A stretch of DNA of 57,872 nucleotides from the NCBI GenBank assembly GCA_036378855.1, contig DASUVR010000253.1, positions 1 to 57,872 of the forward strand, in the 5' to 3' direction. A program made the translations under genes and the position numbers. The notes under the pieces are model-generated. The model searched no databases, had not been told where the DNA came from, and worked only from the letters and a program-made list of their open reading frames with translations. Shown here piece after piece: positions 2,405-30,591 of the stretch (the stretch's first letter is position 1; every line of letters starts with the position of its first letter). The stretch is from Gemmatimonadales bacterium (GTDB lineage Bacteria > Gemmatimonadota > Gemmatimonadetes > Gemmatimonadales > GWC2-71-9).

Positions 2405-3121
2405 TCACTTCATTTTTCGCTCCAGCAGGATCTGCTGCAACTCCTCGGCGGCGGCGGGACCGGCGGGACTGCCTTCTTCATGCTTGAGAAAGACATACGC
2501 TTCGTCCCAAGGCTGGTCCCCTATGCGAGCGGCCCAGGTGCTCAGCTGTGACCTGTCATAAGTGATCCGCCGAAGACGCAGATAGCCCCACGCAGCGGTG
2601 GGAATCAGTGGGGCGCCCTCACCTTCATCCTCATCGACGGCCACAAGCGCTACGTCCCGGTCGCGAAGCAGCTGGTACACCTCCTCGTCGAACCAGGATT
2701 GGTGGCGAAACTCCACTGCGGCATGCCACCGCCGGGGCAACCGACTCAAGAAGCTCTGCAGCCTGGCGGCGTCCTTCTTGAATGTGGGTGGGAGCTGGAA
2801 AAGCGTGGGTCCCATCTGATGCCCCAAAGGGTTTACGGCCTGGAGAAAATACTCCAGGGAGCCATCCTCATTCTTGAGACGGCCGTTGTGGGTTATTCTC
2901 CGCGAAGCCTTCATGACGAACCTGAACTCCGGTGGAACCTGACTCGCCCACGAGGCAAGAACACGATCGGAAGGAATGCGATAGAACGAGTTGTTTACCT
3001 CGACCGTGGAGAAGCGCGCGGCGTAATACGGCAACATCTCATCGGCGGGAATTTTGGGCGGATAAAAGCTCCCTTTCCATTCCTTATAAGACCAGCCACT
3101 GGTGCCGATGTGGATGTTCAT
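2405..3121 (-). CDS. DUF72 (YecE/UPF0759) family protein
   Basis: MNIHIGTSGWSYKEWKGSFYPPKIP..YYAARFSTVEVNNSFYRIP..FRFVMKASRRITH..LFQLPP..EFRH.SW is the canonical DUF72 motif series. Confidence 0.9.
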   Translation of the reverse strand: MNIHIGTSGWSYKEWKGSFYPPKIPADEMLPYYAARFSTVEVNNSFYRIPSDRVLASWASQVPPEFRFVMKASRRITHNGRLKNEDGSLEYFLQAVNPLGHQMGPTLFQLPPTFKKDAARLQSFLSRLPRRWHAAVEFRHQSWFDEEVYQLLRDRDVALVAVDEDEGEGAPLIPTAAWGYLRLRRITYDRSQLSTWAARIGDQPWDEAYVFLKHEEGSPAGPAAAEELQQILLERKMK

Positions 3122-3255
3122 GGTAGTCGCGAGTCACCAGCCACGAGTCACCAGTCACGAGTGGCTGTGGGAAGCCCTGACTGTTGAGGCTGCTGCGTTG
3201 AAGGTGATTACCCAGAGCTCAGATCCAAGCCTGCTCGCGTTCTCGCGACTCGCGA

Positions 3256-4083
3256 CTACTCCACCAGCCGCTTATACGCCCGCAGATGCCGGATGGCTTC
3301 AGCCCGGCGGCCGAGCTGGTCGTAGAGACGAGCCAGATTGAAGTGGGCATCGGCAAAGCTGGCGTCGGTTTCGATAGCCTGCTGGTAGGCCGCCAGGGCA
3401 TCGCGCCAGCGACCCAGCTCCTCCAGCGCCGTGCCCAGGTTGAACGGGGCCGTAGGATCGGTACTCCCGGCTCGGATGGCAGCGAGGTAATGCTCGAGTG
3501 CTTCTTCGGTGCGGCCGGCCAGTTGCAGCAGGCGGCCGAGGTTCACCTGTGCGTCGGAGAGCTGCGGATTCCGCGTCAGCGCTTGAGCATAGGTTCGGAG
3601 TGCCGCCGCCGGATCGCTGGCCTCGAGCTCCAGAGCTGCATCGAACAACTCCCACGCGTCCGGAACCTGGTGACTGGGTCGGGAGTGAGGCGGCAAAGAC
3701 TTGGCAGCATGGGCGGCCGGGACCTTCGGCGCCGATCCAGCGAAGTCGATCTGGACCTGACCGGATTCCGGATTCCAGGCGGTTCCGCCCTCGTGAACCA
3801 GGAGATCGTCGCCATCGGCAACGATCCGCACTTCACTGAGAGACCGGCCGCTGGGTAGGACCCGGGCGAGCCCGCAGAGCGCGGTGCGGATTCGGCGTAA
3901 TGGGATTCTGGCCTGGGCGAGCTCTCGGGCGGTGCGGAGAAGAACGAGATCTTGAAAGGAGAAGCGGTAGCCGTTGCGGGGGCCGCGCTCGAGAGTGAGG
4001 AACCCCGCCCGAGCCTGGGACCGAACTTGAGTCTCGGACAGGCCCAACAAACGGGCCACATCGCGAGTGGAGAAGGACTCCAT
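3256..4083 (-). CDS. MerR-family HTH transcriptional regulator fused to C-terminal TPR repeats
   Basis: The N-terminus FSTRDVARLLGLSETQVRSQARAGFL...YRFSFQDLVLLRTAREL is a MerR-type HTH. The C-terminal half holds repeated A..Y..AL...P....A..NLG units (TPR). It starts 37 nt downstream of the ku stop on the same strand. Confidence 0.8.
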   Translation of the reverse strand: MESFSTRDVARLLGLSETQVRSQARAGFLTLERGPRNGYRFSFQDLVLLRTARELAQARIPLRRIRTALCGLARVLPSGRSLSEVRIVADGDDLLVHEGGTAWNPESGQVQIDFAGSAPKVPAAHAAKSLPPHSRPSHQVPDAWELFDAALELEASDPAAALRTYAQALTRNPQLSDAQVNLGRLLQLAGRTEEALEHYLAAIRAGSTDPTAPFNLGTALEELGRWRDALAAYQQAIETDASFADAHFNLARLYDQLGRRAEAIRHLRAYKRLVE

Positions 4084-4120
4084 GAGCCAACAATTTACGA
4101 CACTACGGCTCGATGGAGAA

Positions 4121-4990
4121 CTACCCCCGTCCTGCTGCCTTCCTCTTCCTCGGAGCGGCTTCGGACTCGTCGGGCTTGGCGGGAGCCCGCTTGGCGGGCT
4201 TCATCTCATCCGTGCTGGCGCCCTTCTTGGCCAGACTTGCCTTCAACGCATCCATCAGGTCGATGATCTTGGTCTCGGGAGGGGCCGCGTCTGCCGTGAT
4301 CTCCTGGCCCTCGACCTTGCTCTGAATTGCCTCGAGCACCCGCTCCCGCACCGTATCGTGATAATTCTCAGGCCGAAACTCGTCGGTAGATGACTGCTCG
4401 ATCAGCTGCCGTGCCAGCGCGAGCTCCGCTTCCTTGACCGGAGTCTCCGGGTGGGGGACTTCGGCGACCGGCTTGAGCTCGGCTGCGTAGTGCAGCTGCT
4501 CCATGACCAGCACTCCATCCAAAGGACGAACGAGAACCAGGTGTTGCTTGCCTCGAGCGGAGTACTGACCGAGAGCCGCGCGGCCCGTTGCCTTCAGTGC
4601 TTCGCCCAGCAGCCGGTAGGCCCGGTCTCCACCTTTGTCGGGTCCGAGATAGTAGACCTTGTCGAGGTACATCCGGTCCACCGCGTTGAGCGGCACGAAC
4701 TCGGCGATGTCGATGGAGTTGGTGGCCTTCTCGTCGAGGGCCTTGATCTCTTCGGGAGTGAAGGTGACGTACTGGCCCTTGGAAAATTCGTAGCCCTTGG
4801 TAATCTCATCCCGTTCGACAACGCCGCCGTCTTTGGGACAGATATACTGCTGCTTAAGCCGGGTCCCACACGACTTGTGCAGCATGTTGAAGCTTACAGT
4901 CGCTGACGACTCGCTGGCGGAATACAGCGACACCGGGACGGAGACCAGCCCGAAGGAGATGGTGGCGTTTCCGATTGATCTGGGAGGCAT
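4121..4990 (-). CDS. ku: non-homologous end joining protein Ku
   Basis: MPPRSIGNATISFGLVSVPVSLYSA...KGYEFSKGQYVTFTPEEIKALD...YYLGPDKGGDRAYRLL, with a basic Lys/Ala-rich C-terminal tail. I take the internal ATG at 4990; the ORF extension to 5176 has no Ku similarity. Confidence 0.9.
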   Translation of the reverse strand: MPPRSIGNATISFGLVSVPVSLYSASESSATVSFNMLHKSCGTRLKQQYICPKDGGVVERDEITKGYEFSKGQYVTFTPEEIKALDEKATNSIDIAEFVPLNAVDRMYLDKVYYLGPDKGGDRAYRLLGEALKATGRAALGQYSARGKQHLVLVRPLDGVLVMEQLHYAAELKPVAEVPHPETPVKEAELALARQLIEQSSTDEFRPENYHDTVRERVLEAIQSKVEGQEITADAAPPETKIIDLMDALKASLAKKGASTDEMKPAKRAPAKPDESEAAPRKRKAAGRG

Positions 4991-5148
4991 TGGCACCCAT
5001 ATACGCTGCAAATCGGGAGCCCGCAAGGAGCGGCCCTTGAAGTGAGCAGTGAACTGGTTGACTCTCACACAGTTGCCGAGATCATCTACATTCGATATGT
5101 CGCAGCGGCGCATCATGCATCGCGCGGTGAGTCTCTTAACTTTCCTCG

Positions 5149-7698
5149 ATGCCCTCGTCACCTGATCGCCTTTCACCCTACCGGGGCAAGCGTTCGCTCG
5201 ACCGGACGCCGGAGCCGTCAGGTTCCGTCGGTGAACGGCGGGAAGGCGGTGGGGTGTTCGTGGTTCATAAGCACGCTGCTCGCCGGCTGCACTACGACCT
5301 GCGGTTGGAGATGGAAGGGGTTCTTCGCTCCTGGGCGGTTCCGAAGGGCCCCTCCTACGACTCAGCCGACAAGCGGCTCGCCGTACTGGTGGAGGATCAT
5401 CCCCTGGAGTACGGGGATTTCGAAGGACTGATTCCAGAGGGCAACTACGGCGCTGGTGCGGTGATTGTGTGGGACCGGGGGAGGTGGGCTCCGCTGGAAG
5501 ATCCAGTTGAAGGCCTCGCCAAAGGCAAGCTCCTGTTCGAACTCCAGGGTATCAAGCTGCGAGGGGTGTGGACCTTGGTAAAGCTGAAGAAGGGAGAGAA
5601 CGAGTGGCTCTTCATCAAGGAGCGTGACGGATACACCGCTTCTCCGGGAAATTTCTCCGAGCAGTCCGTCCTCTCGGGTCTTACCATCGAAGATCTCAAG
5701 GCCGGGAGAACTCCGGCCCAGGAGGTCCGGGCTGAGCTCTCGCGTCTCAGTGTACCCCTGCGAGAGGTGGATGCCGCCACGCTGCGTCCTATGCTGGCCG
5801 AGGCGCAGGAAAAACCGTTCAACGCTCCGGGGTGGCTCTTCGAGCTCAAGCTCGATGGCTACCGGACACTGGCGTCACGAGACCGGACCTCACGGGTGCT
5901 CTCACGGAACGGCAACGACCTCTCGGCCTGCTTCCCGGAAATCGTGCAGGCGCTCAAGGCGCTGCCCTTCGAGCGACTGCTGCTCGACGGCGAGCTGGTG
6001 GCCCTCGACGAACACGGTCGCCCCAGCTTTCAGCGCCTGCAGCAACGCGCCCAGCTTCGGAGAGCTCTCGATATCCGCCACGCGGTGGTGGACTGCCCCG
6101 TGACATTTTACGCCTTCGATCTGCTGGCTTTCGATGGGTTCGATCTTCGCGGGCTGCCGCTGTCGAGCAGAAAACGGCTGCTTCAGCGCGTAGTGCCGCT
6201 GGCCGGAGTCATTCGCTATCTCGATCACTTCGAGGACGACGGCATTGTTCTTTACCAGCAGGTTCAGAAGCTCGGGCTCGAAGGGATCGTGGCTAAACGT
6301 GGTGATTCACCGTACAAGAGTGGCAGATCCCCGGTTTGGATAAAAGTCAGAACCCGGCGCACCGAGGATTTCGTGGTGGTGGGGTTCACCGAGCCCAAGG
6401 GGAGTAGGAGTGGATTCGGCGCCTTGCACCTGGGGTCCTATCACCACGGAGAGCTAAGGTATAGCGGCCGGGCCGGCAGCGGCTTCAGTGACAAACAGCT
6501 CTTCGAAGTTCGGCAGACTCTGCAGTCGCTCCTTCTCAAAGAAGCTCCTTGCTCGGGGCCGTTGCCTTTAGGCGACGGGACCAGGTGGGTAGAACCTCAA
6601 CTGGTCTGCGAGGTGGAGTACACCGAGCGTACCGAGGAAGGGCTGCTCCGCCAACCGGTGTTTCTCCGCTTCCGCGACGACAAGAAGCCGGAAGAGTGCG
6701 TTGCAACCGGGGAAGCGGGGAAGCCGGAAAGTCGGGAGCTAAAAGCTGAACCCAGGCGCAAAGCTACTCGGGCGAAGAGTGCTGGAAGCCAGGAGCGGGG
6801 CGAATCGGCAACCGCCAGCGAGACCCAGTTCACCAATCTGAAAAAGATCTTCTGGCCCGAGGAAGGGTATACCAAGGGAGATCTGATCGAGTACTATCGC
6901 AACGTGTCTCGCTGGATTTTGCCGTATCTCATCGACCGTCCAGTGGTCCTCACCCGCTTTCCCGACGGGATTGCCGGAAAGTCCTTCTTTCAGGTGGATG
7001 CTCCACGCTTCGTTCCTGAGTGGATCCGAACCGAACGCCGCTGGAGCGAGCAGGCCGCGCGTGAGATCGATCATTTCGTATGTGACGACGAAGCCTCCCT
7101 GCTGTATCTGATAAACCTGGGAACCATCCCTCTCCATGTGTGGAGCAGCAGAACCGCCGATATCCAGCATCCGGACTGGTGTGTGCTCGATTTAGACCCC
7201 AAAGGCGCCCCTTTCACGGATGTGGTCAAAGTCGCTGAGGTGGCACACGAGCTTTGCCGGAACATCGGACTGCCCTGCTTGGTGAAGACCAGCGGCTCCT
7301 CGGGCCTCCACCTGATGATTCCGCTCGCAGGGCAGTGTCTGCACGATCATGCGCGTACGCTCGGTGAGCTGCTCGCCCGACTCATTGCGGCAGAGCTCCC
7401 TGAGATAGCCACGCTGGCTCGTCAGATCTCCCGGCGGGAAGGCAGAGTGTATCTGGATTACCTGCAGAACGGTGCCGGCCGTCTCATCGTAGCCCCATTC
7501 AGCGCGCGACCGCTGCCCGGGGCCCCCGTTTCCATGCCGCTCCAGTGGGCCGAGGTAACTCCCCAGTTGAGTATCAAGTCTTTCACCATAGCCAACGCGT
7601 CGGACCGGATGCGGAAGCTCAAGCGTGACCCACTGCGAGAGCTTCTCGATGTGCAACCGGACATCAGTGCTGCGCTGGCGAGGCTGGCGAAACGATAG
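5149..7698 (+). CDS. ligD: ATP-dependent DNA ligase LigD, three-domain (phosphoesterase, ligase, polymerase/primase)
   Basis: N-terminal PE domain (YRGKRSLDRTPEP..FVVHKHAARRLHYDLRLE). Ligase domain with adenylation motif FELKLDGYR. Charged linker. C-terminal Pol domain (FTNLKKIFWPEEGYTKGDLIEYY...VKTSGSSGLHL...YLDYLQN). Divergent from ku. Confidence 0.95.
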   Translation: MPSSPDRLSPYRGKRSLDRTPEPSGSVGERREGGGVFVVHKHAARRLHYDLRLEMEGVLRSWAVPKGPSYDSADKRLAVLVEDHPLEYGDFEGLIPEGNYGAGAVIVWDRGRWAPLEDPVEGLAKGKLLFELQGIKLRGVWTLVKLKKGENEWLFIKERDGYTASPGNFSEQSVLSGLTIEDLKAGRTPAQEVRAELSRLSVPLREVDAATLRPMLAEAQEKPFNAPGWLFELKLDGYRTLASRDRTSRVLSRNGNDLSACFPEIVQALKALPFERLLLDGELVALDEHGRPSFQRLQQRAQLRRALDIRHAVVDCPVTFYAFDLLAFDGFDLRGLPLSSRKRLLQRVVPLAGVIRYLDHFEDDGIVLYQQVQKLGLEGIVAKRGDSPYKSGRSPVWIKVRTRRTEDFVVVGFTEPKGSRSGFGALHLGSYHHGELRYSGRAGSGFSDKQLFEVRQTLQSLLLKEAPCSGPLPLGDGTRWVEPQLVCEVEYTERTEEGLLRQPVFLRFRDDKKPEECVATGEAGKPESRELKAEPRRKATRAKSAGSQERGESATASETQFTNLKKIFWPEEGYTKGDLIEYYRNVSRWILPYLIDRPVVLTRFPDGIAGKSFFQVDAPRFVPEWIRTERRWSEQAAREIDHFVCDDEASLLYLINLGTIPLHVWSSRTADIQHPDWCVLDLDPKGAPFTDVVKVAEVAHELCRNIGLPCLVKTSGSSGLHLMIPLAGQCLHDHARTLGELLARLIAAELPEIATLARQISRREGRVYLDYLQNGAGRLIVAPFSARPLPGAPVSMPLQWAEVTPQLSIKSFTIANASDRMRKLKRDPLRELLDVQPDISAALARLAKR

Positions 7699-8397
7699 AT
7701 GACCACTGAAGCGGCGGATCTCCGGCTCCATGTCTCTCCCAGCATCGGAGAAGTCCAGGCCTTTCTGCTGCGTCCTCCGGACGCCTGGTTGCTCTACGTC
7801 ATGGCCCATGGCGCCGGCGCCGGAATGCGACACCAGTTTCTCGAGCGCATATCAGCATCGCTCGGGGCGAGGGGTGTAGCGACATTCCGCTACCAGTTTC
7901 CCTACATGGAAGCCGGTCGCAACCGGCCCGACCCGCCAGCCATACTCCAGGAAACAGTCCGAGCAGCGGTGATGAAGGCCGGCGAGATCGTTCCTGAGCT
8001 GCCCATAGTAGCGGGCGGAAAATCTCTGGGTGGACGGATGACTTCTTCCGCGGCAGCTAGCGCTTCACTCGATCGCGCCCGGGGGCTGGTGTTTCTCGGC
8101 TTTCCGCTGCACCCTCCGGGGCAGCCCGGCACTCACCGGGCGGATCACCTTCAAGCCGTAGATGTCCCCATGCTTTTTCTCCAGGGAACCCGCGATGGGT
8201 TTGCCCGGCTCGATCTGATTACGGATGTCACCAGCCGCCTGCAATCGCTCGCCACCCTGCACCTGGTGGACGGGGCCGATCACTCGTTTGGCGTCTCCAA
8301 GCGGGCGGGTCGATCTCAGGAACAGGTCATAGACGAGCTAGCCGAAGCCATTGTCGGCTGGGCTCGCGCGCTCGGTGGGGAAGCCGTCCGGGCATGA
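7699..8397 (+). CDS. alpha/beta family hydrolase (COG3571 / KANL3-Tex30-like)
   Basis: AHGAGAGMRHQFLE, the nucleophile elbow GGKSLGGR (G-x-S-x-G), and LQGTRD...H near the C-terminus. Its ATG directly abuts the ligD TAG (TAGATG), and its stop overlaps the next ATG. Confidence 0.8.
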   Translation: MTTEAADLRLHVSPSIGEVQAFLLRPPDAWLLYVMAHGAGAGMRHQFLERISASLGARGVATFRYQFPYMEAGRNRPDPPAILQETVRAAVMKAGEIVPELPIVAGGKSLGGRMTSSAAASASLDRARGLVFLGFPLHPPGQPGTHRADHLQAVDVPMLFLQGTRDGFARLDLITDVTSRLQSLATLHLVDGADHSFGVSKRAGRSQEQVIDELAEAIVGWARALGGEAVRA

Positions 8398-11327
8398 ATT
8401 TCGAGCCCACTGTCCAGCAGCGCCTTGCCATCGAGGCCCCCCTGGGTCCGGTGCTGGTCATGGCGGGGCCCGGTGCCGGGAAGACCTACTGTTTGATTTG
8501 TCGGGTCCAGCATCTCATCCAGGAGCTCGGAATTGCGCCTCGCAGGATCCTGGCTGTCACCTTTACCAACAAGGCAGCTGAAGAGATCGCCCTCCGGCTC
8601 CGCGAGGCGCGGGGGTACGCGGCGGAGGACATCACTCGCGGAACGCTTCACGCTCTGTGCTTCAAGGTGCTGCGAGACTTTCCCGAGCAGTGCGGACTGC
8701 GCCCCGGTTTCGGAGTGGCGGACCAGGAGTACCAGCTTGGGGTGTTGAAGCGATTGCGGGTGCCGGAAAAGCGACGGGCCCAGGTCCTGGCCTTGTTCAG
8801 TCTCTATCGTCTGCAGGGACGGTTGCTCGGCGAGCGCGGCACGGCGTTGCTGGGGCGCTATCAGGAGCGTTTGCGTGATCGCAATCTGGCCGACTTCGAC
8901 GATCTGGTCGTTTTGACCGAGCGCCTCCTCCGGACCGATTCCTCCGCGGCAGCCCAGCTCCGCGCCAGGTGGGACTACGTGCTGGTAGACGAGTTTCAGG
9001 ATTTGAGTCCGGTTCAGTACGGCGTCGTTCGGCAGCTGGCGGAGGGACATCGAAATCTCTTCGGGGTGGGTGATGACGAGCAGGCGATTTTTTCCTGGGC
9101 CGGATCGGACCCGCACATCATTCACCGGTTCCGCGACGATTTTGGACTGACCCATCCCATCGTGTTGGACCGAAACTGTCGCTGCTCGGTGCAGATCTTC
9201 GATGCCGCCAAGCGGCTGATTGCCTGTAACCCTCGTCTATTCGAGAAGCAGATCGAGGCTACCCGGGACTCACGATTCGACGTTCAGGTAGAAGCGTTTG
9301 ATAGCGATGAGGATGAAGTCGCCTGGCTGATCGAGGATCTGCGGAGAGACCAGGCCGAGCATGGCGGCGGGTGGGGTGACACTGCCCTGCTGTACCGGTC
9401 CCATCGGCTGGGACGGTACCTGGAGGAGCGGCTGGTCTGCTCCGGCATACCGTGCCGGCTGGCCCAGGGACACGCTCTCACCGACGACAAAATAGTCGGC
9501 TGGGTCATAGCGTCCTTGCAGGTGATCCGATCCCCCGACGACCCGGTTCGGCTCGGAGTTCTGGCCGAGCACGCGCTCCCTCCGGCAGTGCGGCAGGAGG
9601 TATCGAAGAGCTTCGTTCGGGGAAAGGACCTGGTGACCAACCTCAGGAACTTTGCCGCCTCTCGTCCCCGCGGCGATGCGGATGCCCGGCGAGTCTGGCG
9701 GCTCATCTACCACCTCGAAAACCTTCGAGGCATGGCGCGCTCGCATCACACCCTACCCGGATTGGTGGACGAGCTGCTCACCCGTCCGATCGGGGCGGGA
9801 CGCAATCCCCTCGAGGAGCACCATCACGATCTGAGCGATCCGGGAGCATATCCGGGTGCCGCGTTCCTGGCAGGCCAGATCAGCCGCGCCGTTGCCGCAG
9901 GTCAGCGGATCAGCGTGGAGCCGAGTGGGGGCCTGGAGATCCCGCTGGTGGCGATGTTGCGTGCGGCGGGGCTGCCTCAGGCGCAACCTCTCTCCGGCCC
10001 TCAAGACTCCGCTACTTCCGACCTGGTGCTCAGGCCCGCCGAGGGCAGCAGGGGATGGCCGATCCGGCTGTTCAAGGCGCTCCAGCTGATCCAGACCCGC
10101 GGACTCAAGAGCGACTTCGATGATTTTGTCGCCTTCGATCTCGAGACCAGCGATTTCGACATCGAGACTTGCGAGATCGTGGAGATCGCGGCGGTGCGGG
10201 TGCGTCAGCGCGTGGTGGTAGAGCATTTCCATAGCCTCATCGCCTGCTGCCGGCCCATCTCGGCTCCGGCAACCGAGGTGCATGGTTACACCGATCAGGA
10301 TGTCGCCGAAGCACCCCCGCTGGATCAGGTCTGGGCCCGGTTTCGCGCGTTTGTGGGTACCGATCTGCTGGTGGCGCACAACGGACAGGAGTTTGATGTC
10401 CCGGTGCTGCGCCGGCTTTGCCGAGACCTTCCCGGCATCGACGACCTGGTATTCTACGACACCTTACCTCTGGCCAGGTCGCTGGTCGAAGGGAGCGCCA
10501 GACTCACCGAGCTGGCTGCCCGATTCAATGTGGAGGTGGGTCGCGCGCACCACGCCTTCGATGACGCCTACATGCTGGCAGGCGTGGTTCCCGCGCTGAA
10601 CGAGCTGCGAATGAGGCGGGCCCGGAAGATCGCGGCGGTCAATTTGCTCGATCAGCTGGGCCTTGCCCTCGCAGTTGATCCCAACCGCGGAGACGGAGAA
10701 GAGGAAACTCTGCTCCGCGATATCACCCGACCCTTCACCCTTGGCCGCTACAGCGATTGCCTGGAGGGTTACGCCGCAGAGATTGCCCGGGGCGTCGTGG
10801 GCCCCTCGATCGAGGAAGTGGTGGAGCGATTGGGCGGGCGGGTCCTGATGGAGCGTCTCCGGGCTGAGCGAACGGTCTCGGATCGCTATCCCGTGGCGGT
10901 CGAGCGGCTGCGGATGCTGATACAGGCCAGCACGGGAGAGTCGGTGGCCCATCAGATCGATGATCTGCTGAGCCGGGCTGCGCTCTCCACCAGCGCAGGA
11001 GCAGAGACCCACCCGGATCGAGTCAACCTATTGACCCTCCACTCGACCAAGGGACTGGAGTTCTCCCGGGTGTACATCGTGGGGGTCGAAGATCAACAAC
11101 TGCCCGGATGGAAGGCTCTGGAAGAGAATATGGAGGCCGAGATCCAGGAGGCCAGGCGCCTGCTGTATGTCGGTATGACCCGGGCCAAGGACCGGCTCGT
11201 TCTCACCCGAGCCCAGCGCCGGGCCGGCTTGCCGACGGGCGGAAGCCTTTTTCTCACCGAGGCTGGACTGAGCCAACACCAGAGTGGCATACCTCCTGCA
11301 TTAGCCGCCCCCGTCACAATCAGGTAG
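8394..11327 (+). CDS. UvrD/Rep-family SF1 helicase with an internally inserted DEDDh (DnaQ-like) 3'-5' exonuclease domain
   Basis: Helicase motifs: I AGPGAGKTY, II LVDEFQDLSP, III GVGDDEQAIFSWAG, IV LDRNCRC, and V/VI LTLHSTKGLEFSRVYIVG and LLYVGMTRAKDRLVLT. Between motifs IV and V lie exonuclease motifs FDLETSD (about 10135), AHNGQEFDVPVL, and HHAFDDA (about 10548). Confidence 0.9.
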   Translation: MNFEPTVQQRLAIEAPLGPVLVMAGPGAGKTYCLICRVQHLIQELGIAPRRILAVTFTNKAAEEIALRLREARGYAAEDITRGTLHALCFKVLRDFPEQCGLRPGFGVADQEYQLGVLKRLRVPEKRRAQVLALFSLYRLQGRLLGERGTALLGRYQERLRDRNLADFDDLVVLTERLLRTDSSAAAQLRARWDYVLVDEFQDLSPVQYGVVRQLAEGHRNLFGVGDDEQAIFSWAGSDPHIIHRFRDDFGLTHPIVLDRNCRCSVQIFDAAKRLIACNPRLFEKQIEATRDSRFDVQVEAFDSDEDEVAWLIEDLRRDQAEHGGGWGDTALLYRSHRLGRYLEERLVCSGIPCRLAQGHALTDDKIVGWVIASLQVIRSPDDPVRLGVLAEHALPPAVRQEVSKSFVRGKDLVTNLRNFAASRPRGDADARRVWRLIYHLENLRGMARSHHTLPGLVDELLTRPIGAGRNPLEEHHHDLSDPGAYPGAAFLAGQISRAVAAGQRISVEPSGGLEIPLVAMLRAAGLPQAQPLSGPQDSATSDLVLRPAEGSRGWPIRLFKALQLIQTRGLKSDFDDFVAFDLETSDFDIETCEIVEIAAVRVRQRVVVEHFHSLIACCRPISAPATEVHGYTDQDVAEAPPLDQVWARFRAFVGTDLLVAHNGQEFDVPVLRRLCRDLPGIDDLVFYDTLPLARSLVEGSARLTELAARFNVEVGRAHHAFDDAYMLAGVVPALNELRMRRARKIAAVNLLDQLGLALAVDPNRGDGEEETLLRDITRPFTLGRYSDCLEGYAAEIARGVVGPSIEEVVERLGGRVLMERLRAERTVSDRYPVAVERLRMLIQASTGESVAHQIDDLLSRAALSTSAGAETHPDRVNLLTLHSTKGLEFSRVYIVGVEDQQLPGWKALEENMEAEIQEARRLLYVGMTRAKDRLVLTRAQRRAGLPTGGSLFLTEAGLSQHQSGIPPALAAPVTIR

Positions 11328-11334
11328 GTATCCA

Positions 11335-11943
11335 GTGAGGCTCGTCGCTTATGCCCTGCCGCTTCTGGCTGGGGCTCCGAGCGTGATGGCTGCGCAGGTC
11401 ACCATCGCTCTTCCTCGGGTCCAGCGTCCGGTGGTCCGGGCAACGCTTGGCCCCATCTCAGTCGTTGCAACAGTTGGCGGACGGGGCGTGAACCTTCGTG
11501 CTACACCGGGCACCACCCACCCGACAACTCCTACCCACACTGCCGGCGCAGGGCATGCCACCGCCGCCGGCGTTCTGGCCACCGCCAAACGCTATCTGGG
11601 GGCGCACTATCGCTACGGCGGTGAGAGTCCCGTGTCCGGCTTCGACTGCTCCGGGTTTGTCCAGTATGTGTTCGGGCGACACGGTGTCAAACTGCCGCGC
11701 ACTTCCCGCGGGCAGGCATCGGCCGGTAGCCCGGTATCTCTGGATGTGGCCTCGCTCCGTCCCGGTGATCTTCTTCTTTTTGCCAGCACCGGGACCATTG
11801 TCAACCACGTCGCGATTTACGTCGGCAACAACAGAATTCTTCACTCTGCTGCGGGGGCGGGTGGAGTAGTGTACGACGATCTTACCAGCGCCAGGGGAAA
11901 GTGGTACCTGCAGAGGCACGTGGCCTCGCGCCGAGTCCTCTAA
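11335..11943 (+). CDS. C40 family (NlpC/P60) peptidoglycan endopeptidase
   Basis: Signal-like N-terminus. YRYGGESPVSGFDCSGFVQYVF (catalytic Cys), PGDLLLFA, and HVAIYVG (His). GTG start 7 nt after the helicase stop. Confidence 0.88.
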   Translation: MRLVAYALPLLAGAPSVMAAQVTIALPRVQRPVVRATLGPISVVATVGGRGVNLRATPGTTHPTTPTHTAGAGHATAAGVLATAKRYLGAHYRYGGESPVSGFDCSGFVQYVFGRHGVKLPRTSRGQASAGSPVSLDVASLRPGDLLLFASTGTIVNHVAIYVGNNRILHSAAGAGGVVYDDLTSARGKWYLQRHVASRRVL

Positions 11944-19040: not shown

Positions 19041-19946
19041 ATGGGAGCAGCGAACGTGGCAGGCACTAAGAAGACGCGCCGTCGGTCGACTCGCCCTGCG
19101 GCTCTTGCCCGAGCGGTCGACGAGGGACGTGAGAGCCTCGATTTTTACCTCAAGGAGATCAGCCGGATTCCTCTGCTTACGGTAGCGGAAGAGACGGCTC
19201 TGGCACGGCGTGCGTTCAAGGGCGACGTGGACGCCCAGGAGCGCCTCGCTCGGCACAACGTCAGGTTCGTGGTGTCCGTGGCCAAGAAGTTTCAGAACCG
19301 CGGCGTTCCTCTAATGGATCTGATCGGAGAAGGGAACGTGGGCCTGATGACCGCGGCGCGAAAGTTCGATCCCGACCGCGGAGTCAAGTTCATCTCCTAT
19401 GCTGTCTGGTGGATCCGGCAGGCAATTCAGGCAGCTATCGCACGGCATGGACGGCCAGTCCGGTTGCCGCTGAATCGCACCGCCGATCTCACCCGGTTGG
19501 GAAGGGTCACCACCCTTCTGACCGAGAAGCTGGGGCGCGTGCCCACAACCGAGGAGCTGGTTTCGGCTACGGGGCTGACGCCTGAAGCGGTGCGCTCTCT
19601 GGGTGCGCTTCACATAGAGGCCCTGCGTCTCGACCAGCCTATCAGGGAGGGCGAGGACAGGGGTCGGCTGGACCGGTTCGTTCCCCTGACGCAGGAAGGG
19701 ACCGACGCCTCTACCCTGGCGAGCAGCAGGACCCACGATCTCGAGTTGGCGCTGGCCGCTCTGCCGCCTCGCGATGCCAAGGTGCTCCGGCTGTATTTCG
19801 GTCTGGATGACGGCAACAGCCGGACTCTGGAAGAGATCGGCCGGATGATGGGAGTAACCCGTGAGCGTATTCGTCAGCTCCGCGATCGAGCGCTTCGGCA
19901 GCTGAAGGAGGAGCACGGCGATGTGCTGCGGGAGCTGGCTGCCTGA
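19041..19946 (+). CDS. RNA polymerase sigma factor, RpoD/sigma-70 family (group 2/3-like, 301 aa)
   Basis: Region 1.2/2: LDFYLKEISRIPLLTVAEETALARR, HNVRFVVSVAKKFQNRGVPLMDLIGEGNVGLMTAARKFDPDRGVKFISYAVWWIRQAI. Region 4.2: RTLEEIGRMMGVTRERIRQLRDRALRQL. It has a basic N-terminal extension. Confidence 0.9.
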   Translation: MGAANVAGTKKTRRRSTRPAALARAVDEGRESLDFYLKEISRIPLLTVAEETALARRAFKGDVDAQERLARHNVRFVVSVAKKFQNRGVPLMDLIGEGNVGLMTAARKFDPDRGVKFISYAVWWIRQAIQAAIARHGRPVRLPLNRTADLTRLGRVTTLLTEKLGRVPTTEELVSATGLTPEAVRSLGALHIEALRLDQPIREGEDRGRLDRFVPLTQEGTDASTLASSRTHDLELALAALPPRDAKVLRLYFGLDDGNSRTLEEIGRMMGVTRERIRQLRDRALRQLKEEHGDVLRELAA

Positions 19947-29296: not shown

Positions 29297-29863
29297 ATGG
29301 ATGCCATAGTAGCCATTACCTCCCGTACCTCAGTCCGCCGCTTCCTGGACCAGCCGGTTCCTCGACACTTGATCCAGCAGCTGCTCGACTGCGCGGTCAG
29401 AGCGCCCAATCACAAGCTGACGGAGCCGTGGCGGTTTGCCGTTCTCACCGGTGCCGCCAAGGACCGCTTCGCCGAGATCCGGGCGCGCCACCGGCTCAAG
29501 CGTTTCAGTGATCCTGCGGCCGCGGAGGCGCAGGCAGCGGCCGAAAAGGTGCGGCAGGATGCGCGAAGCACCCCAGCATATGTCGTGGAGATGGTTGCCG
29601 TGAGCCCGGACGAGATTACCCGGGAAGATGATTATGCAGCAGCAATGATGGCGATCGGCAATCTGATGACGGCCGCTCAATCGTTTGGGCTCGGCACCTA
29701 CCTCAGAACCGGCGGCGTGATGCGCGATCCAGCCTTGCTCGAGCTGGCCGCTGTGCCCGATGGTTTTCGGGTGGTGGGAATTATCTCCCTGGGCTACCCC
29801 GCTGAACCGGATCCGCCGCGGCGCCGGCGTTCGGCAGCGGAGTTGACTCAGTGGTTTGACTGA
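29297..29863 (+). CDS. nitroreductase family protein
   Basis: MDAIVAITSRTSVRRFLDQPVPRHLIQQLLDCAVRAPNHKLTEPWRFAVL...MMAIGNLMTAAQSFGLGT. Internal ATG chosen at 29297. Confidence 0.85.
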   Translation: MDAIVAITSRTSVRRFLDQPVPRHLIQQLLDCAVRAPNHKLTEPWRFAVLTGAAKDRFAEIRARHRLKRFSDPAAAEAQAAAEKVRQDARSTPAYVVEMVAVSPDEITREDDYAAAMMAIGNLMTAAQSFGLGTYLRTGGVMRDPALLELAAVPDGFRVVGIISLGYPAEPDPPRRRRSAAELTQWFD

Positions 29864-30591
29864 CCCAGCAGCCGCTCCATGGCCTGTGCGTCCCGGATGG
29901 CAAATCCTTCCCAATCGTTGTTGAAGTAGAGATAGACCTCCTTCCCGGCATCAGCGAGCGACCGAATCTGACCGCTCCAGCTCTTGAGCTCCTGACGGGT
30001 AAATCCTCCGGCTGGCTCCTGTCCCCGGTGCATCCGGATATAGGTGAAACTCGCAGTAGTGATGCGGTCCGGATGAAGCCCGCCGCCAACCGGGATGCAG
30101 AGGGCCACGCCATGCTCGGCCAGCAGTCGATAGGTGTCGGTGGTATGCCAGCTCGCATGCCGGAACTCTACCACCCACTGGCGCCCGGGATGGAGCAGCT
30201 GGAGGAACGCCCGGAGCCTCTGAAGATCGATCTGCTGGTTGGGCGGCAGCTGAAACAGCACCGGGCCCAGCTTTGGCCCCAGCAGCTCCGCCCGTTCCAT
30301 GAGGAGCGCGATTTCGTCGGCGACGTCCAGCAACCGCTTGATATGGGTGATGTAACGGCTCGCCTTGACGGCAAAGCGAAACCCCTCAGGGGTGACCTCC
30401 CGCCAGCGGAGAAACATCTCCGGGGTGGGCAACCGGTAAAACGGATTGTTCAGCTCCACGGTGGGAAAACGGGCCGCATAGTAGGCGAGCTCTTCCCGCT
30501 GTTTGAGCTTGGGGGGGTAGAACACGCCCTTCCGCCAGTGGCGGTAGACGTATCCCGAGGTTCCGATCCACACCTTTCCCGGGCCGGACAT
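29848..30591 (-). CDS. DUF72 (YecE/UPF0759) family protein, second copy
   Basis: VWIGTSGYVYRHWRKGVFYPPKLK..YYAARFPTVELNNPFYRLP..FRFAVKASRYITH..LFQLPP..EFRHASW. It is a diverged paralogue of 2405..3121. Confidence 0.9.
   Translation of the reverse strand: MSGPGKVWIGTSGYVYRHWRKGVFYPPKLKQREELAYYAARFPTVELNNPFYRLPTPEMFLRWREVTPEGFRFAVKASRYITHIKRLLDVADEIALLMERAELLGPKLGPVLFQLPPNQQIDLQRLRAFLQLLHPGRQWVVEFRHASWHTTDTYRLLAEHGVALCIPVGGGLHPDRITTASFTYIRMHRGQEPAGGFTRQELKSWSGQIRSLADAGKEVYLYFNNDWEGFAIRDAQAMERLLGQSNH

Follow-up and report, generated by a model that had tools for sequence, protein, structure and literature searches.

Introduction

Bacterial end joining (NHEJ) is taught and modelled as the work of Ku plus LigD. 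To our knowledge, genetic work on mycobacterial NHEJ has yet to settle which enzymes carry out resection or end cleaning ahead of ligation. The canonical two-gene systems of Pseudomonas aeruginosa and Mycobacterium tuberculosis consist of a Ku homodimer and LigD. Two further proteins have been proposed as NHEJ-associated factors: a non-canonical PolX, which adjoins LigD in Alphaproteobacteria (PMC9226535), and Sir2 in mycobacteria (PMC3102665). They are precedents for lineage-specific NHEJ helpers, some of which were revealed by gene neighbourhood. Mycobacterial UvrD1 is reported to be a Ku-stimulated SF1 helicase. A large comparative study of NHEJ considered Ku-LigD proximity only and did not cover the phylum analysed here (PMC7719229).

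We analysed a 57,872-nucleotide (nt) stretch of chromosomal DNA from Gemmatimonadales, hereafter the window. As in the canonical systems, ku and the gene for a three-domain LigD are divergent neighbours, both proteins pass the NCBIfam equivalog cut-offs, and the LigD domain order (PE-ligase-polymerase) is of the Pseudomonas type. In contrast to those systems, the pair is set in a conserved block with an Abhydrolase_11 gene coupled to ligD, an HTH/TPR gene after ku, and a DUF72 gene. These extra genes belong to families other than those of PolX and Sir2, neither of which is an alpha/beta-hydrolase, a DUF72 or an HTH/TPR protein. The Ku/LigD pair itself is known; its conserved partnership with the hydrolase, the HTH/TPR protein and DUF72 appears to be new. 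We found no paper in the literature searched that describes any of the three as a Ku/LigD partner, which agrees with the original prediction that no Ku/LigD system with such components had been described.

Results

Gene content of the ku/ligD locus

Profile searches with Pfam and NCBIfam confirmed all seven previously described open reading frames (ORFs), with their coordinates and claimed domains. The locus contains the following features.

2405-3121, minus strand: DUF72 gene (PF01904, E = 9e-61), TIM-barrel protein of 238 aa, last conserved gene of the ku arm
3122-3255, minus strand: 134-nt spacer between the HTH/TPR and DUF72 genes, predicted hairpin of 7-nt GAGTCNN repeats
3256-4083, minus strand: HTH/TPR gene (Pfam MerR_1 HTH plus TPR), 275 aa
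4121-4990, minus strand: ku (TIGR02772, 284 bits, cut-off 150; PF02735, E = 1.5e-48), 289 aa from the ATG at 4990
4991-5148: divergent ku/ligD control region of 158 nt, promoter-like consensus matches on both strands
5149-7698, plus strand: ligD (PF13298, PF01068, PF04679, PF21686; TIGR02776, 523 bits, cut-off 373), 849 aa
7699-8397, plus strand: Abhydrolase_11 (COG3571-type) hydrolase gene (PF20408, E = 1e-51), 232 aa
8394-11327, plus strand: UvrD/PcrA-type helicase with an inserted DEDDh exonuclease (PF00580, PF13361, PF00929), 977 aa
11335-11943, plus strand: NlpC/P60 gene (PF00877), cell-wall peptidase with a signal peptide

The view of this region as a Ku/LigD locus with extra genes on both arms was thus borne out for genes, domains and junctions. 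On the ku arm, 37 nt separate ku from the HTH/TPR gene, which is followed by the 134-nt gap to DUF72. On the ligD arm, the junctions were read from the sequence: TAG/ATG at 7696-7701 between ligD and the hydrolase gene, an ATGA overlap at 8394-8397 between the hydrolase and helicase genes, and a 7-nt gap before the GTG of NlpC/P60 at 11335.

The Ku protein is of the bacterial single-domain type (TIGR02772, PF02735), and LigD unites phosphoesterase, ATP-dependent ligase and primase-polymerase in one protein, with all Pfam domains above their cut-offs. In the ORF listing, ku reaches a GTG at 5176. Homology and the MPPRSIGN start place the true ATG at 4990, a position that also fits a promoter-like element upstream. 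This element (minus strand: TTGCGG, 17 nt, TATATG, then 7 nt to the ku ATG) is kept in the loci L002, L003, L005, L016 and L022. On the plus strand, TTGACT, 16 nt and GATCAT were detected at 5058-5085, 64 nt before the ligD ATG. Both elements were recognised solely as consensus matches.

The hydrolase and its coupling to ligD

The hydrolase belongs to the alpha/beta serine hydrolases, with the nucleophile elbow G-x-S-x-G, an Asp and a His. Ser109 (in the GKSLGG motif) and Asp166 were invariant across 52 homologues of 38-77% identity, while His195 was kept in at least 90% of them and was invariant in a closer set. The Ser-Asp-His triad is intact, and the oxyanion-hole motif is conserved. The AF2 model has an alpha/beta fold (pLDDT 96) and was matched to serine hydrolases by Foldseek with a probability of 1.0. 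Its best PDB matches were the lid-less hydrolases 2fuk, 2o2g, 3trd and 2i3d; the structural matches returned by Foldseek were esterases and lid-less hydrolases of unknown function, with no DNA enzyme among them. We take the eukaryotic members of this family to include KANSL3 and TEX30, and we know of no serine alpha/beta-hydrolase that acts on DNA ends. The earlier suggestion of an end-cleaning factor was not supported as stated; the lid-less esterase fold is unlike any DNA enzyme.

Hydrolase loci were surveyed in 80 species-representative genomes, and 74 of these loci were informative for the gene upstream. The ligD gene was found within about 3 kb of the hydrolase gene in 39 of the 80 genomes; in 25 of the 74 informative loci it immediately precedes the hydrolase gene on the same strand. 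When at least 8 kb was available on both sides, ligD and ku were both present in 16/32 loci, namely 14/17 in Gemmatimonadota and 2/15 outside this phylum. No ligD was detected near the hydrolase in Acidobacteriota, Bradyrhizobium, Nitrospira and similar loci, and on proteobacterial plasmids, copies of the hydrolase gene have catabolic or toxin genes as neighbours. Beyond a Gemmatimonadota-centred set, the Abhydrolase_11 family shows no tie to NHEJ.

The ligD-hydrolase junction measured -4, -1 or 0 nt in 15 of 31 listed junctions, a sample in which a few contigs are near-duplicates from the window's own species group. Such junctions were also found in loci with other phylum labels (L027, labelled Eisenbacteria, and L070, labelled Binatia), and the predicted codon-level coupling of the two genes is conserved. 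The recurrent partners of the hydrolase were all DNA-related: LigD, DUF72, an EVE-domain protein and the helicase-exonuclease.

The HTH/TPR and DUF72 genes of the ku arm

The HTH/TPR protein combines a MerR_1/HTH_17-like HTH, a small conserved beta region and four TPR repeats. Its N-terminal HTH is of the MerR type (PF13411, residues 5-69, 29.5 bits with a cut-off of 21.6), and the motif is kept in orthologues from three phylum labels. MerR regulators have a long antiparallel coiled-coil dimerisation helix, an effector-binding C-terminal domain and an over-long promoter spacer of 19-20 bp. The AF2 model of the HTH/TPR protein contains short helices (43-57, 62-75), beta strands and four TPRs; pLDDT is above 90 in the TPR part and 35-66 for residues 1-140. 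Consensus scans of the ku/ligD spacer found no convincing MerR-type palindromic operator with a 19-20 bp promoter spacer, the spacers there being 17 and 16 nt. The original prediction of a dedicated MerR-TPR regulator stands for the MerR-type HTH and the TPR, but the label of a dedicated MerR regulator is unproven, because the long dimerisation helix is missing from a model whose N-terminus is of low confidence.

Of the 26 Ku-containing loci, 15 have the HTH/TPR gene immediately after ku and 11 lack it; the 15 include Longimicrobiales as well as Eisenbacteria- and Binatia-labelled metagenome assemblies (MAGs). Three look-ups were anchored on the HTH/TPR gene itself. A ku gene was directly upstream in both loci that extend far enough, and in the third (L168) the contig end leaves only an uncharacterised 98-aa gene fragment upstream.

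The DUF72 protein of the window is a full-length member of its family (YecE/TM1631; structures 1VPQ, 1VPY and 1ZTV), covering positions 1-216 of the 217 in the PF01904 profile. An orthologue was present within 10 kb of the hydrolase gene in 27/80 species-level loci. It adjoins the hydrolase gene in 11 loci, including four without ligD (L017, L020, L039, L051), and it sits at either end of the block, depending on the locus. The DUF72 fold is related to UVDE and endonuclease IV (PMC11791011; PMC3828134). In the literature searched, the only published context link is an enrichment near polB2 damage-response operons (PMC11791011), and no link of DUF72 to Ku/LigD was found.

The repeat-rich character noted earlier for the spacer upstream of DUF72 was confirmed, and inverted repeat arms were found at 3123-3140 and 3242-3259. 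RNA folding predicted a hairpin of -64.6 kcal/mol (z = -3.2) that ends 2 nt before the DUF72 AUG. Its arms co-vary in the relatives L001/L002 and L003; the hairpin is absent from L085, L167 and L168.

Conservation of the block across genomes

The hydrolase-anchored neighbourhood analysis upheld the expected co-occurrence for the hydrolase, HTH/TPR and DUF72 genes, but not for the helicase::exonuclease. The three former genes co-occur with ku and ligD far beyond close relatives. The hydrolase-NHEJ association was detected in three gene arrangements, on at least five branches of the hydrolase tree and in several phyla. Gemmatimonadales and MAGs labelled Eisenbacteria or Binatia show LigD>Hyd>, Longimicrobiales show Hyd>...<LigD Ku> HTH/TPR>, and a single deltaproteobacterial MAG shows Ku>Hyd>. 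The arrangement exceeds chance, and stop/start overlaps recur at the ligD-hydrolase and hydrolase-helicase junctions.

The Eisenbacteria-labelled locus L027 and the Binatia-labelled locus L070 share 78.8% nucleotide identity over 7.4 kb, and their flanks are unalignable. The common stretch comprises one unknown gene, HTH/TPR, ku, ligD, hydrolase and DUF72. The five-gene block appears to travel as a whole between phyla. Some of the conservation is simple synteny: within the window's clade, the block lies inside a region of about 20 kb whose gene order is conserved. Stress-type genes (DUF892, DUF3618, CHAD and polyphosphate kinase [PPK]) form the left flank of the window block. The taxonomic labels of the MAGs may be wrong, in which case the cross-phylum argument would weaken.

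The helicase-exonuclease and NlpC/P60 genes

The helicase carries the 1A and 2A motor domains (PF00580, E = 2.5e-62; PF13361), and its motifs are intact and conserved (Walker A GPGAGKT, VDEFQD, GDDEQ(A/S)I and VGMTRA). An RNase_T/DEDD domain occupies residues 579-731 (PF00929, E = 6e-24). The DEDDh motifs FDLETS, HNGQEFD (HNGQxFD) and HHAFDDA (HHAxDD) are present and are kept in orthologues. The protein matches PcrA (1pjr) with E = 2e-69. PcrA aligns to residues 8-387 and 875-944 only, and for PcrA, UvrD and Rep taken together the aligned parts are limited to 8-418 and 875-944. A canonical 2B domain was not found; residues ~420-875 are an insert that holds the exonuclease.

Like UvrD1, the window helicase has a UvrD/PcrA-family motor (match to UvrD1 chain 9dci, E = 3e-53). 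UvrD1, however, has a normal 2B domain and is encoded away from the NHEJ locus, whereas the window protein has a DEDDh exonuclease and helical flanks at the 2B position. WRN is a eukaryotic RecQ helicase with a DEDD 3'-5' exonuclease and is stimulated by Ku70/80. Bacterial DinG exonuclease-helicase fusions also exist (PMC12525004). The window protein resembles WRN and DinG in joining a helicase and a DnaQ-like 3'-5' exonuclease in one polypeptide. The likeness is architectural only: WRN and DinG are SF2 proteins with an N-terminal exonuclease, while the window protein is SF1A with the exonuclease nested in 2A/2B. With AddAB, AdnAB and RecBCD it has in common a UvrD-like motor combined with a nuclease, and weak NCBIfam matches to AddA and RecB were obtained. 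Those enzymes differ in being heteromers with C-terminal RecB-type PD-(D/E)XK nucleases that serve homologous recombination.

The NlpC/P60 protein, whose N-terminus reads MRLVAYALPLLAGAPSVMAAQV, carries a signal peptide. The gene is missing after the helicase gene in the relative L086, and the hydrolase-anchored survey never found it with the block outside the window's clade. Although it had been counted with the ligD string, we judged this secreted protein to be a passenger outside the system.

Discussion

We consider it moderately likely that the region is a Ku/LigD end-joining locus within a conserved, larger-than-canonical gene block, whose extra genes are added repair parts. The short divergent control region is predicted to drive two transcription units: a leftward one from ku through HTH/TPR to DUF72, and a rightward one from ligD to the hydrolase gene, which in the window's lineage only would continue into the helicase-exonuclease gene. 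Ku would bind the broken ends, and LigD would heal, fill and seal them. The hydrolase would be made together with LigD via translational coupling. It may be an esterase- or peptidase-type deblocking enzyme for ester- or amide-linked adducts, with protein or peptide remnants or acyl groups as its targets, either on DNA ends or on repair proteins. DUF72 may be a nuclease of the endonuclease IV/UVDE kind that takes out damaged nucleotides close to the ends. In the HTH/TPR protein, the HTH would bind DNA and the TPR a partner protein, and the protein might either autoregulate the ku unit or serve as a scaffold. The ligD operon of the window's lineage, and of no other, appears to have recruited a housekeeping-type UvrD::DEDDh enzyme, which might unwind and trim 3' tails there in a manner comparable to that of WRN and Ku in eukaryotes. 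NlpC/P60 would be unrelated to end joining. We infer these roles of the extra genes from sequence. The full version of the proposal, to which we give low credence, is that NHEJ in Gemmatimonadota and some neighbouring lineages would be a four- or five-protein system, in which the hydrolase and DUF72 are true end-cleaners, the HTH/TPR protein tethers or regulates Ku, and UvrD::DEDDh is the 3' trimming nuclease of one lineage.

Other explanations were weighed against the favoured one. The hydrolase, DUF72 and HTH/TPR genes might be stationary-phase or desiccation survival genes that are switched on with ku and ligD and have no direct role in joining. This would suit bacterial NHEJ as a stationary-phase or spore function, the esterase-like fold of the hydrolase, the non-DNA contexts of its homologues in Proteobacteria and Acidobacteriota, and the DUF3618, holin_3_6-like, DUF892, CHAD, His_Phos_1 and PPK genes that flank the block in every close relative. 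However, this flank is not kept in other Gemmatimonadota clades, in which the hydrolase-ligD pair is kept, and the block aligns between phyla without its flanks. The codon-level coupling is specific to ligD, and the hydrolase keeps company with DNA-related genes. We regard such stress co-regulation as rather doubtful. Neighbourhood by common descent alone, with no functional or regulatory link, is already disfavoured and appears improbable. It would explain the relatives at 72-87% identity, whose conservation is little informative because their gene order is identical over about 20 kb. It does not explain why the partnerships recur in three arrangements, on at least five hydrolase-tree branches and across phylum labels, or why stop/start overlaps are preserved; moreover, a random gene would be expected beside ligD roughly 1 time in 2000, as opposed to the 25/74 observed.

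The original prediction also saw in the helicase::exonuclease a dedicated, Ku-directed end-processing module of NHEJ. The predicted overlap of the hydrolase stop with the helicase ATG was confirmed as ATGA and is conserved within the window's lineage; an ATGA/GTGA overlap was found in 11 of the 14 loci where both genes adjoin. Adjacency persists to about 50% helicase identity (L031, L072, L139), the helicase gene flanks the NHEJ block on the opposite side in L033 and L046, the ATPase and DEDDh motifs are intact, and UvrD1 of mycobacteria offers a precedent, being reportedly stimulated by Ku. The pair also adjoins without ligD in L054. From the helicase side, however, the hydrolase gene was upstream in 1 of 51 loci with enough upstream DNA and missing in the other 50, and 11 of 12 loci with at least 5 kb on both sides lacked every NHEJ-block gene. 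Elsewhere, the helicase gene has as neighbours the genes for an SNF2 helicase, kinases, a DsbH-type thioredoxin and a cyclophilin. Its adjacency to NHEJ genes is restricted to one grade of the helicase tree, and most Gemmatimonadales NHEJ blocks have an EVE-domain gene or DUF72 after the hydrolase gene. As a general NHEJ partner the helicase was rejected, and a dedicated module seems unlikely; its place in the ligD operon is a lineage-specific addition, found in the window's lineage alone. An anti-phage defence island, for example a Gabija-like one with the UvrD-type helicase as its motor, was considered in view of PADLOC scores of the helicase against GajB models and of the exonuclease domain against a CRISPR-associated DEDDh model. 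These matches are generic to UvrD and DEDD, the other six proteins gave no defence-family match beyond a weak HTH, and the helicase gene is conserved, phylum-wide and apparently single-locus. PADLOC detected neither GajA nor another defence partner among the neighbouring proteins, and a Gabija identity was rejected. Because the partner genes are absent, the defence reading is effectively refuted, and we give it hardly any credence.

Under the favoured reading, in which the extra genes are added repair parts, the hydrolase, HTH/TPR and DUF72 proteins are testable candidates for additional components of a "two-protein" pathway. A block that keeps three more genes with ku and ligD across many species yields clonable candidates, namely a serine hydrolase, a TIM-barrel protein resembling nucleases and an HTH/TPR protein. 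Should the hydrolase act on adducts at DNA ends, this would be new chemistry for alpha/beta-hydrolases in DNA repair, and such a role, if true, would be the first functional handle on its family. If the genes are merely co-regulated stress genes, the result would still define a dormancy and desiccation survival regulon in an abundant, poorly studied soil phylum.

Organization of the NHEJ locus

According to the original prediction, the window carries an expanded NHEJ locus in which both arms hold extra genes. All seven claimed open reading frames were found, and each domain call was upheld.

Genes of the locus (Pfam/NCBIfam domain calls; for Ku, also homology)
2405-3121 (-): DUF72 protein
3256-4083 (-): MerR_1-type HTH followed by TPR repeats (HTH/TPR gene)
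4990 (start ATG) to 4121 (end) (-): Ku
5149-7698 (+): LigD with phosphoesterase, ligase and primase-polymerase domains
7699-8397 (+): Abhydrolase_11 (PF20408) hydrolase
8394-11327 (+): UvrD-type helicase with an RNase_T/DEDD exonuclease at residues 579-731
11335-11943 (+): NlpC/P60 peptidase

The sequence also bore out the proposed junctions. The ligD stop abuts the hydrolase start (TAG|ATG at 7696-7701), the hydrolase and helicase genes overlap in ATGA (8394-8397), and 7 nt separate the helicase gene from the GTG of the NlpC/P60 gene at 11335. On the other strand, ku and the HTH/TPR gene are 37 nt apart, and the DUF72 gene follows the HTH/TPR gene after 134 nt. The mechanical ku reading frame starts with GTG at 5176 and would overlap ligD. 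Because homology to Ku runs from residue 66, together with the sequence MPPRSIGN, we placed the start at the ATG at 4990, leaving a divergent ku/ligD spacer of 158 nt. Ku and LigD passed the family cut-offs; the core belongs to canonical bacterial NHEJ.

The closest proteins and loci came from Gemmatimonadales MAGs. The rest of the window is ordinary chromosome, with genes for Ddl, a penicillin-binding peptidase, EF-P, TonB-dependent receptors and a ClsB-like PLD protein with an EEP-family partner, among others; the window scan returned no tRNA genes or Rfam matches. The left flank (1-2327) is a run of stress-type genes conserved in five relatives (loci L002, L003, L085, L167 and L168; L-numbers denote homologous loci in other genomes or contigs). 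It comprises two unknown small genes and genes for a holin_3_6-like protein, DUF3618, DUF892, CHAD, His_Phos_1 and polyphosphate kinase; as far as DUF892, all are co-oriented with ku. A sigma-70 family gene (19041-19946, +; 301 aa; regions 1.2, 2, 3 and 4) lies some 7 kb rightward of the locus and holds its position in L085 and L086; its product might serve the region as a stress sigma factor.

The hydrolase gene is recurrently linked to ligD and ku

Relatives with a 72-87% identical hydrolase share about 20 kb of identical gene order. Since such synteny in close relatives carries little information by itself, we scanned one genome per species (GTDB set) with an alignment of 14 hydrolase sequences. 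The 80 loci analyzed were the best-scoring of more than 600, and Gemmatimonadota are over-represented among them. All relatives are MAGs or metagenome contigs with taxonomy labels as deposited. A codon log-odds gene caller reproduced public gene calls and placed some hydrolases of other taxa antisense; all counts were therefore taken from tblastn, by which orthologues of each window protein were located in the 80 loci.

Within about 3 kb of the hydrolase gene, ligD was found in 39 of these 80 best-scoring loci. It was directly upstream and on the same strand in 25 of the 74 loci with sufficient upstream sequence. Where at least 8 kb was available on both sides, half of the loci (16/32) contained both ligD and ku: 14 of 17 in Gemmatimonadota versus 2 of 15 elsewhere. 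The gene partnership takes three arrangements. Most Gemmatimonadales, along with Eisenbacteria- and Binatia-labelled MAGs, have LigD>Hyd>; Longimicrobiales and one Gemmatimonadaceae have Hyd>...<LigD Ku> HTH/TPR>; and one deltaproteobacterial MAG has Ku>Hyd>. In a Bacteroidota MAG, ligD lies 1 kb from the hydrolase gene. In a quick neighbor-joining tree, the NHEJ-linked hydrolases fell on at least five branches. No NHEJ context was found by tblastn in the species-level loci of equally similar hydrolases from Acidobacteriota, Bradyrhizobium, Nitrospira and Verrucomicrobiota, nor around any examined copy on proteobacterial plasmids or megaplasmids. On one of these, Variovorax paradoxus plasmid CP063167 (L170, 6102-7618), the gene of the hydrolase homologue shares 4 nt with the stop end of a gene whose annotation is TatD-family hydrolase, another TIM-barrel nuclease-type enzyme.

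For 31 ligD-hydrolase junctions, the exact stop/start geometry was computed. Nine loci, including the Eisenbacteria-labelled L027 and the Binatia-labelled L070, have a 4-nt ATGA/GTGA overlap. Four (L003, its near-duplicate L004, L035 and L085) overlap by 1 nt, the window and its two nearest relatives show direct abutment, and the remainder mostly have short gaps. The geometry had been read as a sign of translational coupling; across the 31 junctions, overlap or abutment is a conserved feature of the gene pair and not an accident of a single genome. Single-genome insertions of small genes of DNA-damage type between ligD and the hydrolase gene were also seen: a GIY-YIG nuclease gene in L086 (3988-4371) and a DinB-family protein gene in L079 (4741-5262).

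L027 (4021-11375) and L070 (2265-9492) are 78.8% identical in nucleotide sequence over 7.4 kb. The aligned stretch holds an unknown 430-aa gene with no Pfam match, the HTH/TPR gene, ku, ligD, and the hydrolase and DUF72 genes; the other 8-13 kb of the two loci did not align with each other. Either the whole block was transferred horizontally or one of the two bins is mislabelled. On both readings, the block was kept while its flanks differ.

HTH/TPR, DUF72 and EVE partners

Among the 26 loci containing ku, 15 have the HTH/TPR gene directly beyond it. In look-ups anchored on the HTH/TPR gene, ku was directly upstream in two of three; in the third (L168), the contig ends just upstream, and only an uncharacterized 98-aa fragment is present there. 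The orthologues share the N-terminal motif ...DVAxLLGLSxxQVRxxARxGFLxPxRGxR...FSFQDLVLLRTA... and, ahead of the TPR repeats, the segment W-x-P-x-S-G-Q, which is invariant. A PDB profile search with the family returned TPR proteins only. The AF2 model was confident solely for four TPR repeats; its N-terminal half (pLDDT 35-66) consists of the HTH, two short helices and a beta region. The long MerR coiled coil was not seen in this low-confidence half, and we therefore regard the protein as MerR-like in its HTH only.

A DUF72 gene lies within 10 kb of the hydrolase gene in 27 of the 80 loci. Its position varies: it follows the hydrolase gene in some loci and lies beyond ku in others, and in four loci it adjoins the hydrolase gene without ligD. 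DUF72 has been described as a TIM barrel with UV-damage endonuclease and endonuclease IV as relatives and with predicted DNA binding (PMC11791011, PMC3828134), and it is enriched near polB2 damage-response genes (PMC11791011). The window has a second DUF72 paralogue (29848-30591, -; PF01904, E = 4e-71), 27 kb from the NHEJ-linked copy and 43% identical to it.

In many Gemmatimonadales, the hydrolase gene is directly followed by a gene for a 138-aa EVE-domain protein (PF01878; PUA-like, modified-base-binding). This order was seen in 14 species-level loci (among them L010, L015, L032, L033, L038, L043, L046, L049, L061, L062 and L077), with ligD upstream in most. The window has no EVE gene, and a published EVE-domain survey mentions neither a hydrolase/NHEJ context of EVE nor the partner families. 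Since LigD, DUF72, EVE and the helicase-exonuclease, all nucleic-acid proteins, recur beside the hydrolase, the hydrolase is a hub of these neighborhoods.

Probable capture of the helicase-exonuclease in one lineage

In the helicase-exonuclease, the Walker A, DExx and subsequent helicase motifs are intact, as are the DEDDh motifs. Alignments with PcrA, UvrD and Rep are confined to residues 8-418 and 875-944, so that the 2B position is taken by the exonuclease with its helical flanks. No solved structure with an exonuclease in the 2B position of a UvrD-type helicase was found in the PDB.

The protein had been proposed as a dedicated end-processing module of NHEJ. As an independent test of linkage, an alignment of the exonuclease insert was used to scan metagenome contigs; the 80 loci obtained were ranked by similarity to a clade other than the window's. 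The hydrolase gene was upstream of the helicase gene in 1 of the 51 loci with at least 1 kb of upstream sequence, and any gene of the NHEJ block was nearby in 1 of the 12 loci that extend 5 kb or more to each side; L139 was the sole case in both counts. Elsewhere, the neighbors were genes for an SNF2 helicase, a hybrid kinase, a DsbH-type thioredoxin, a cyclophilin, an HD protein and a Ser/Thr kinase. Five loci of one clade (L112, L113, L138, L140 and L143) have a LigB/Lig1-type ATP-dependent ligase (DNA_ligase_A_N + A_M, not LigD) about 8 kb, or seven genes, upstream of the helicase-exonuclease; in this clade, an SNF2-family helicase gene is directly and divergently upstream.

In a quick neighbor-joining tree of the helicase, copies encoded next to the hydrolase make up a single grade (L031, L139, the window's clade and L072); a sister subclade is without the adjacency. 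A separate clade (L046, L087-L091) carries the NHEJ block on the other side. The ATGA/GTGA overlap between the hydrolase and helicase genes is kept in 11 of the 14 loci of the hydrolase-adjacent grade. In L054 (10001-11196), the hydrolase gene precedes the helicase-exonuclease gene with no Ku/LigD in the 10 kb upstream, and hence this pairing can occur without ligD. We conclude that, in one lineage, the ligD operon took in a helicase that occurs throughout the phylum. An end-processing role in the window's lineage is plausible; as a general NHEJ component, the protein is contradicted by the 1/51 count.

The NlpC/P60 gene, which had been counted in the same string, is a passenger. The N-terminus of its product reads as a signal peptide, the gene is lost in L086, and it was absent from every NHEJ block examined outside the window's clade.

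The hydrolase is predicted to be active with an open site

The hydrolase model is a compact alpha/beta fold (pLDDT 96). Its nearest solved structures are four lid-less serine hydrolases without an assigned function, XC6422 (2fuk), 2o2g, 3trd and Atu1826 (2i3d); feruloyl esterases and monoglyceride lipases come next. A PDB sequence search gave only marginal esterase matches. Ser109 and Asp166 are invariant, His195 is at least 90% conserved, and the HGAG oxyanion motif is nearly invariant. Conservation extends to several basic residues: R147 never varies, and R64, R113, H138 and H150 reach at least 90%. The conserved residues and the model show a predicted active enzyme of esterase or peptidase type with an open site, and they do not indicate the substrate. 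Longer Abhydrolase_11 proteins with domain fusions were uninformative save for one DUF1428 case.

Control regions and spacers

On the ku strand of the window's spacer, TTGCGG, 17 nt and TATATG are followed by 7 nt to the ATG, an arrangement conserved in the window's wider clade; it suggests that the ku mRNA may be nearly leaderless. A match to TTGACT, 16 nt, GATCAT lies 64 nt before ligD. In many other Gemmatimonadales, the ku-ligD spacer is only 37-60 nt in total. Such short spacers (L014, L015, L018, L033, L036, L045, L049, L060, L061 and L077) are centered on the 9-bp near-palindrome GTATGATAC (or TACTATA), which each start codon flanks at a distance of about 8 nt, and look like compact bidirectional promoters for two putatively leaderless mRNAs. 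When ku-ligD spacers were compared between loci with and without the HTH/TPR gene, no MerR-type operator motif specific to HTH/TPR-bearing loci was found. Promoter and terminator scans gave consensus-level hints only, with fewer terminator-like sites than in shuffled sequence.

The ku, HTH/TPR and DUF72 genes share one orientation and are separated by short gaps. The 134-nt spacer before the DUF72 gene (3122-3255) contains a long hairpin of 7-nt GAGTCNN repeats with GANTC sites. Its predicted RNA fold is -64.6 kcal/mol (z = -3.2), and the 3' arm ends 2 nt before the DUF72 AUG. Some relatives have other repeat units (GAGTCGG, GGGTCTA) with matching complementary arms, showing that the stem covaries; in other relatives the hairpin is missing altogether.

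Proposed function and relation to known NHEJ systems

The two divergent units are probably expressed together under NHEJ-favoring conditions; the left flank consists of stress-type genes. Ku and LigD would perform the joining. For the hydrolase, which would be produced together with LigD, the most plausible role is the removal of blocking groups attached through ester or amide bonds; for DUF72, it is incision at damaged nucleotides close to the ends. The HTH/TPR protein may autoregulate the ku unit or bridge Ku to DNA or partner proteins. The helicase-exonuclease of the window's lineage may serve to unwind 3' tails and trim them. A reading of the locus as a defense system was rejected.

Known or proposed NHEJ helpers include mycobacterial UvrD1, mycobacterial Sir2 (PMC3102665) and a non-canonical PolX encoded next to LigD in Alphaproteobacteria (PMC9226535). 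Their families differ from those found at the window locus. The largest comparative study of bacterial NHEJ analyzed Ku-LigD proximity alone and does not mention Gemmatimonadota (PMC7719229). Full-text literature searches returned no description of the hydrolase, HTH/TPR or DUF72 proteins as Ku/LigD partners, and no Ku/LigD link was found in the literature searched for COG3571, PF20408/Abhydrolase_11/TEX30, LigD-MerR, DUF72 or UvrD-DEDD fusions. Any specific chemistry assigned to the accessory proteins is considerably less likely than a functional tie as such. We consider it moderately probable that the genes for the hydrolase, the HTH/TPR protein and DUF72 have such a tie to Ku/LigD, at the least by way of co-expression.
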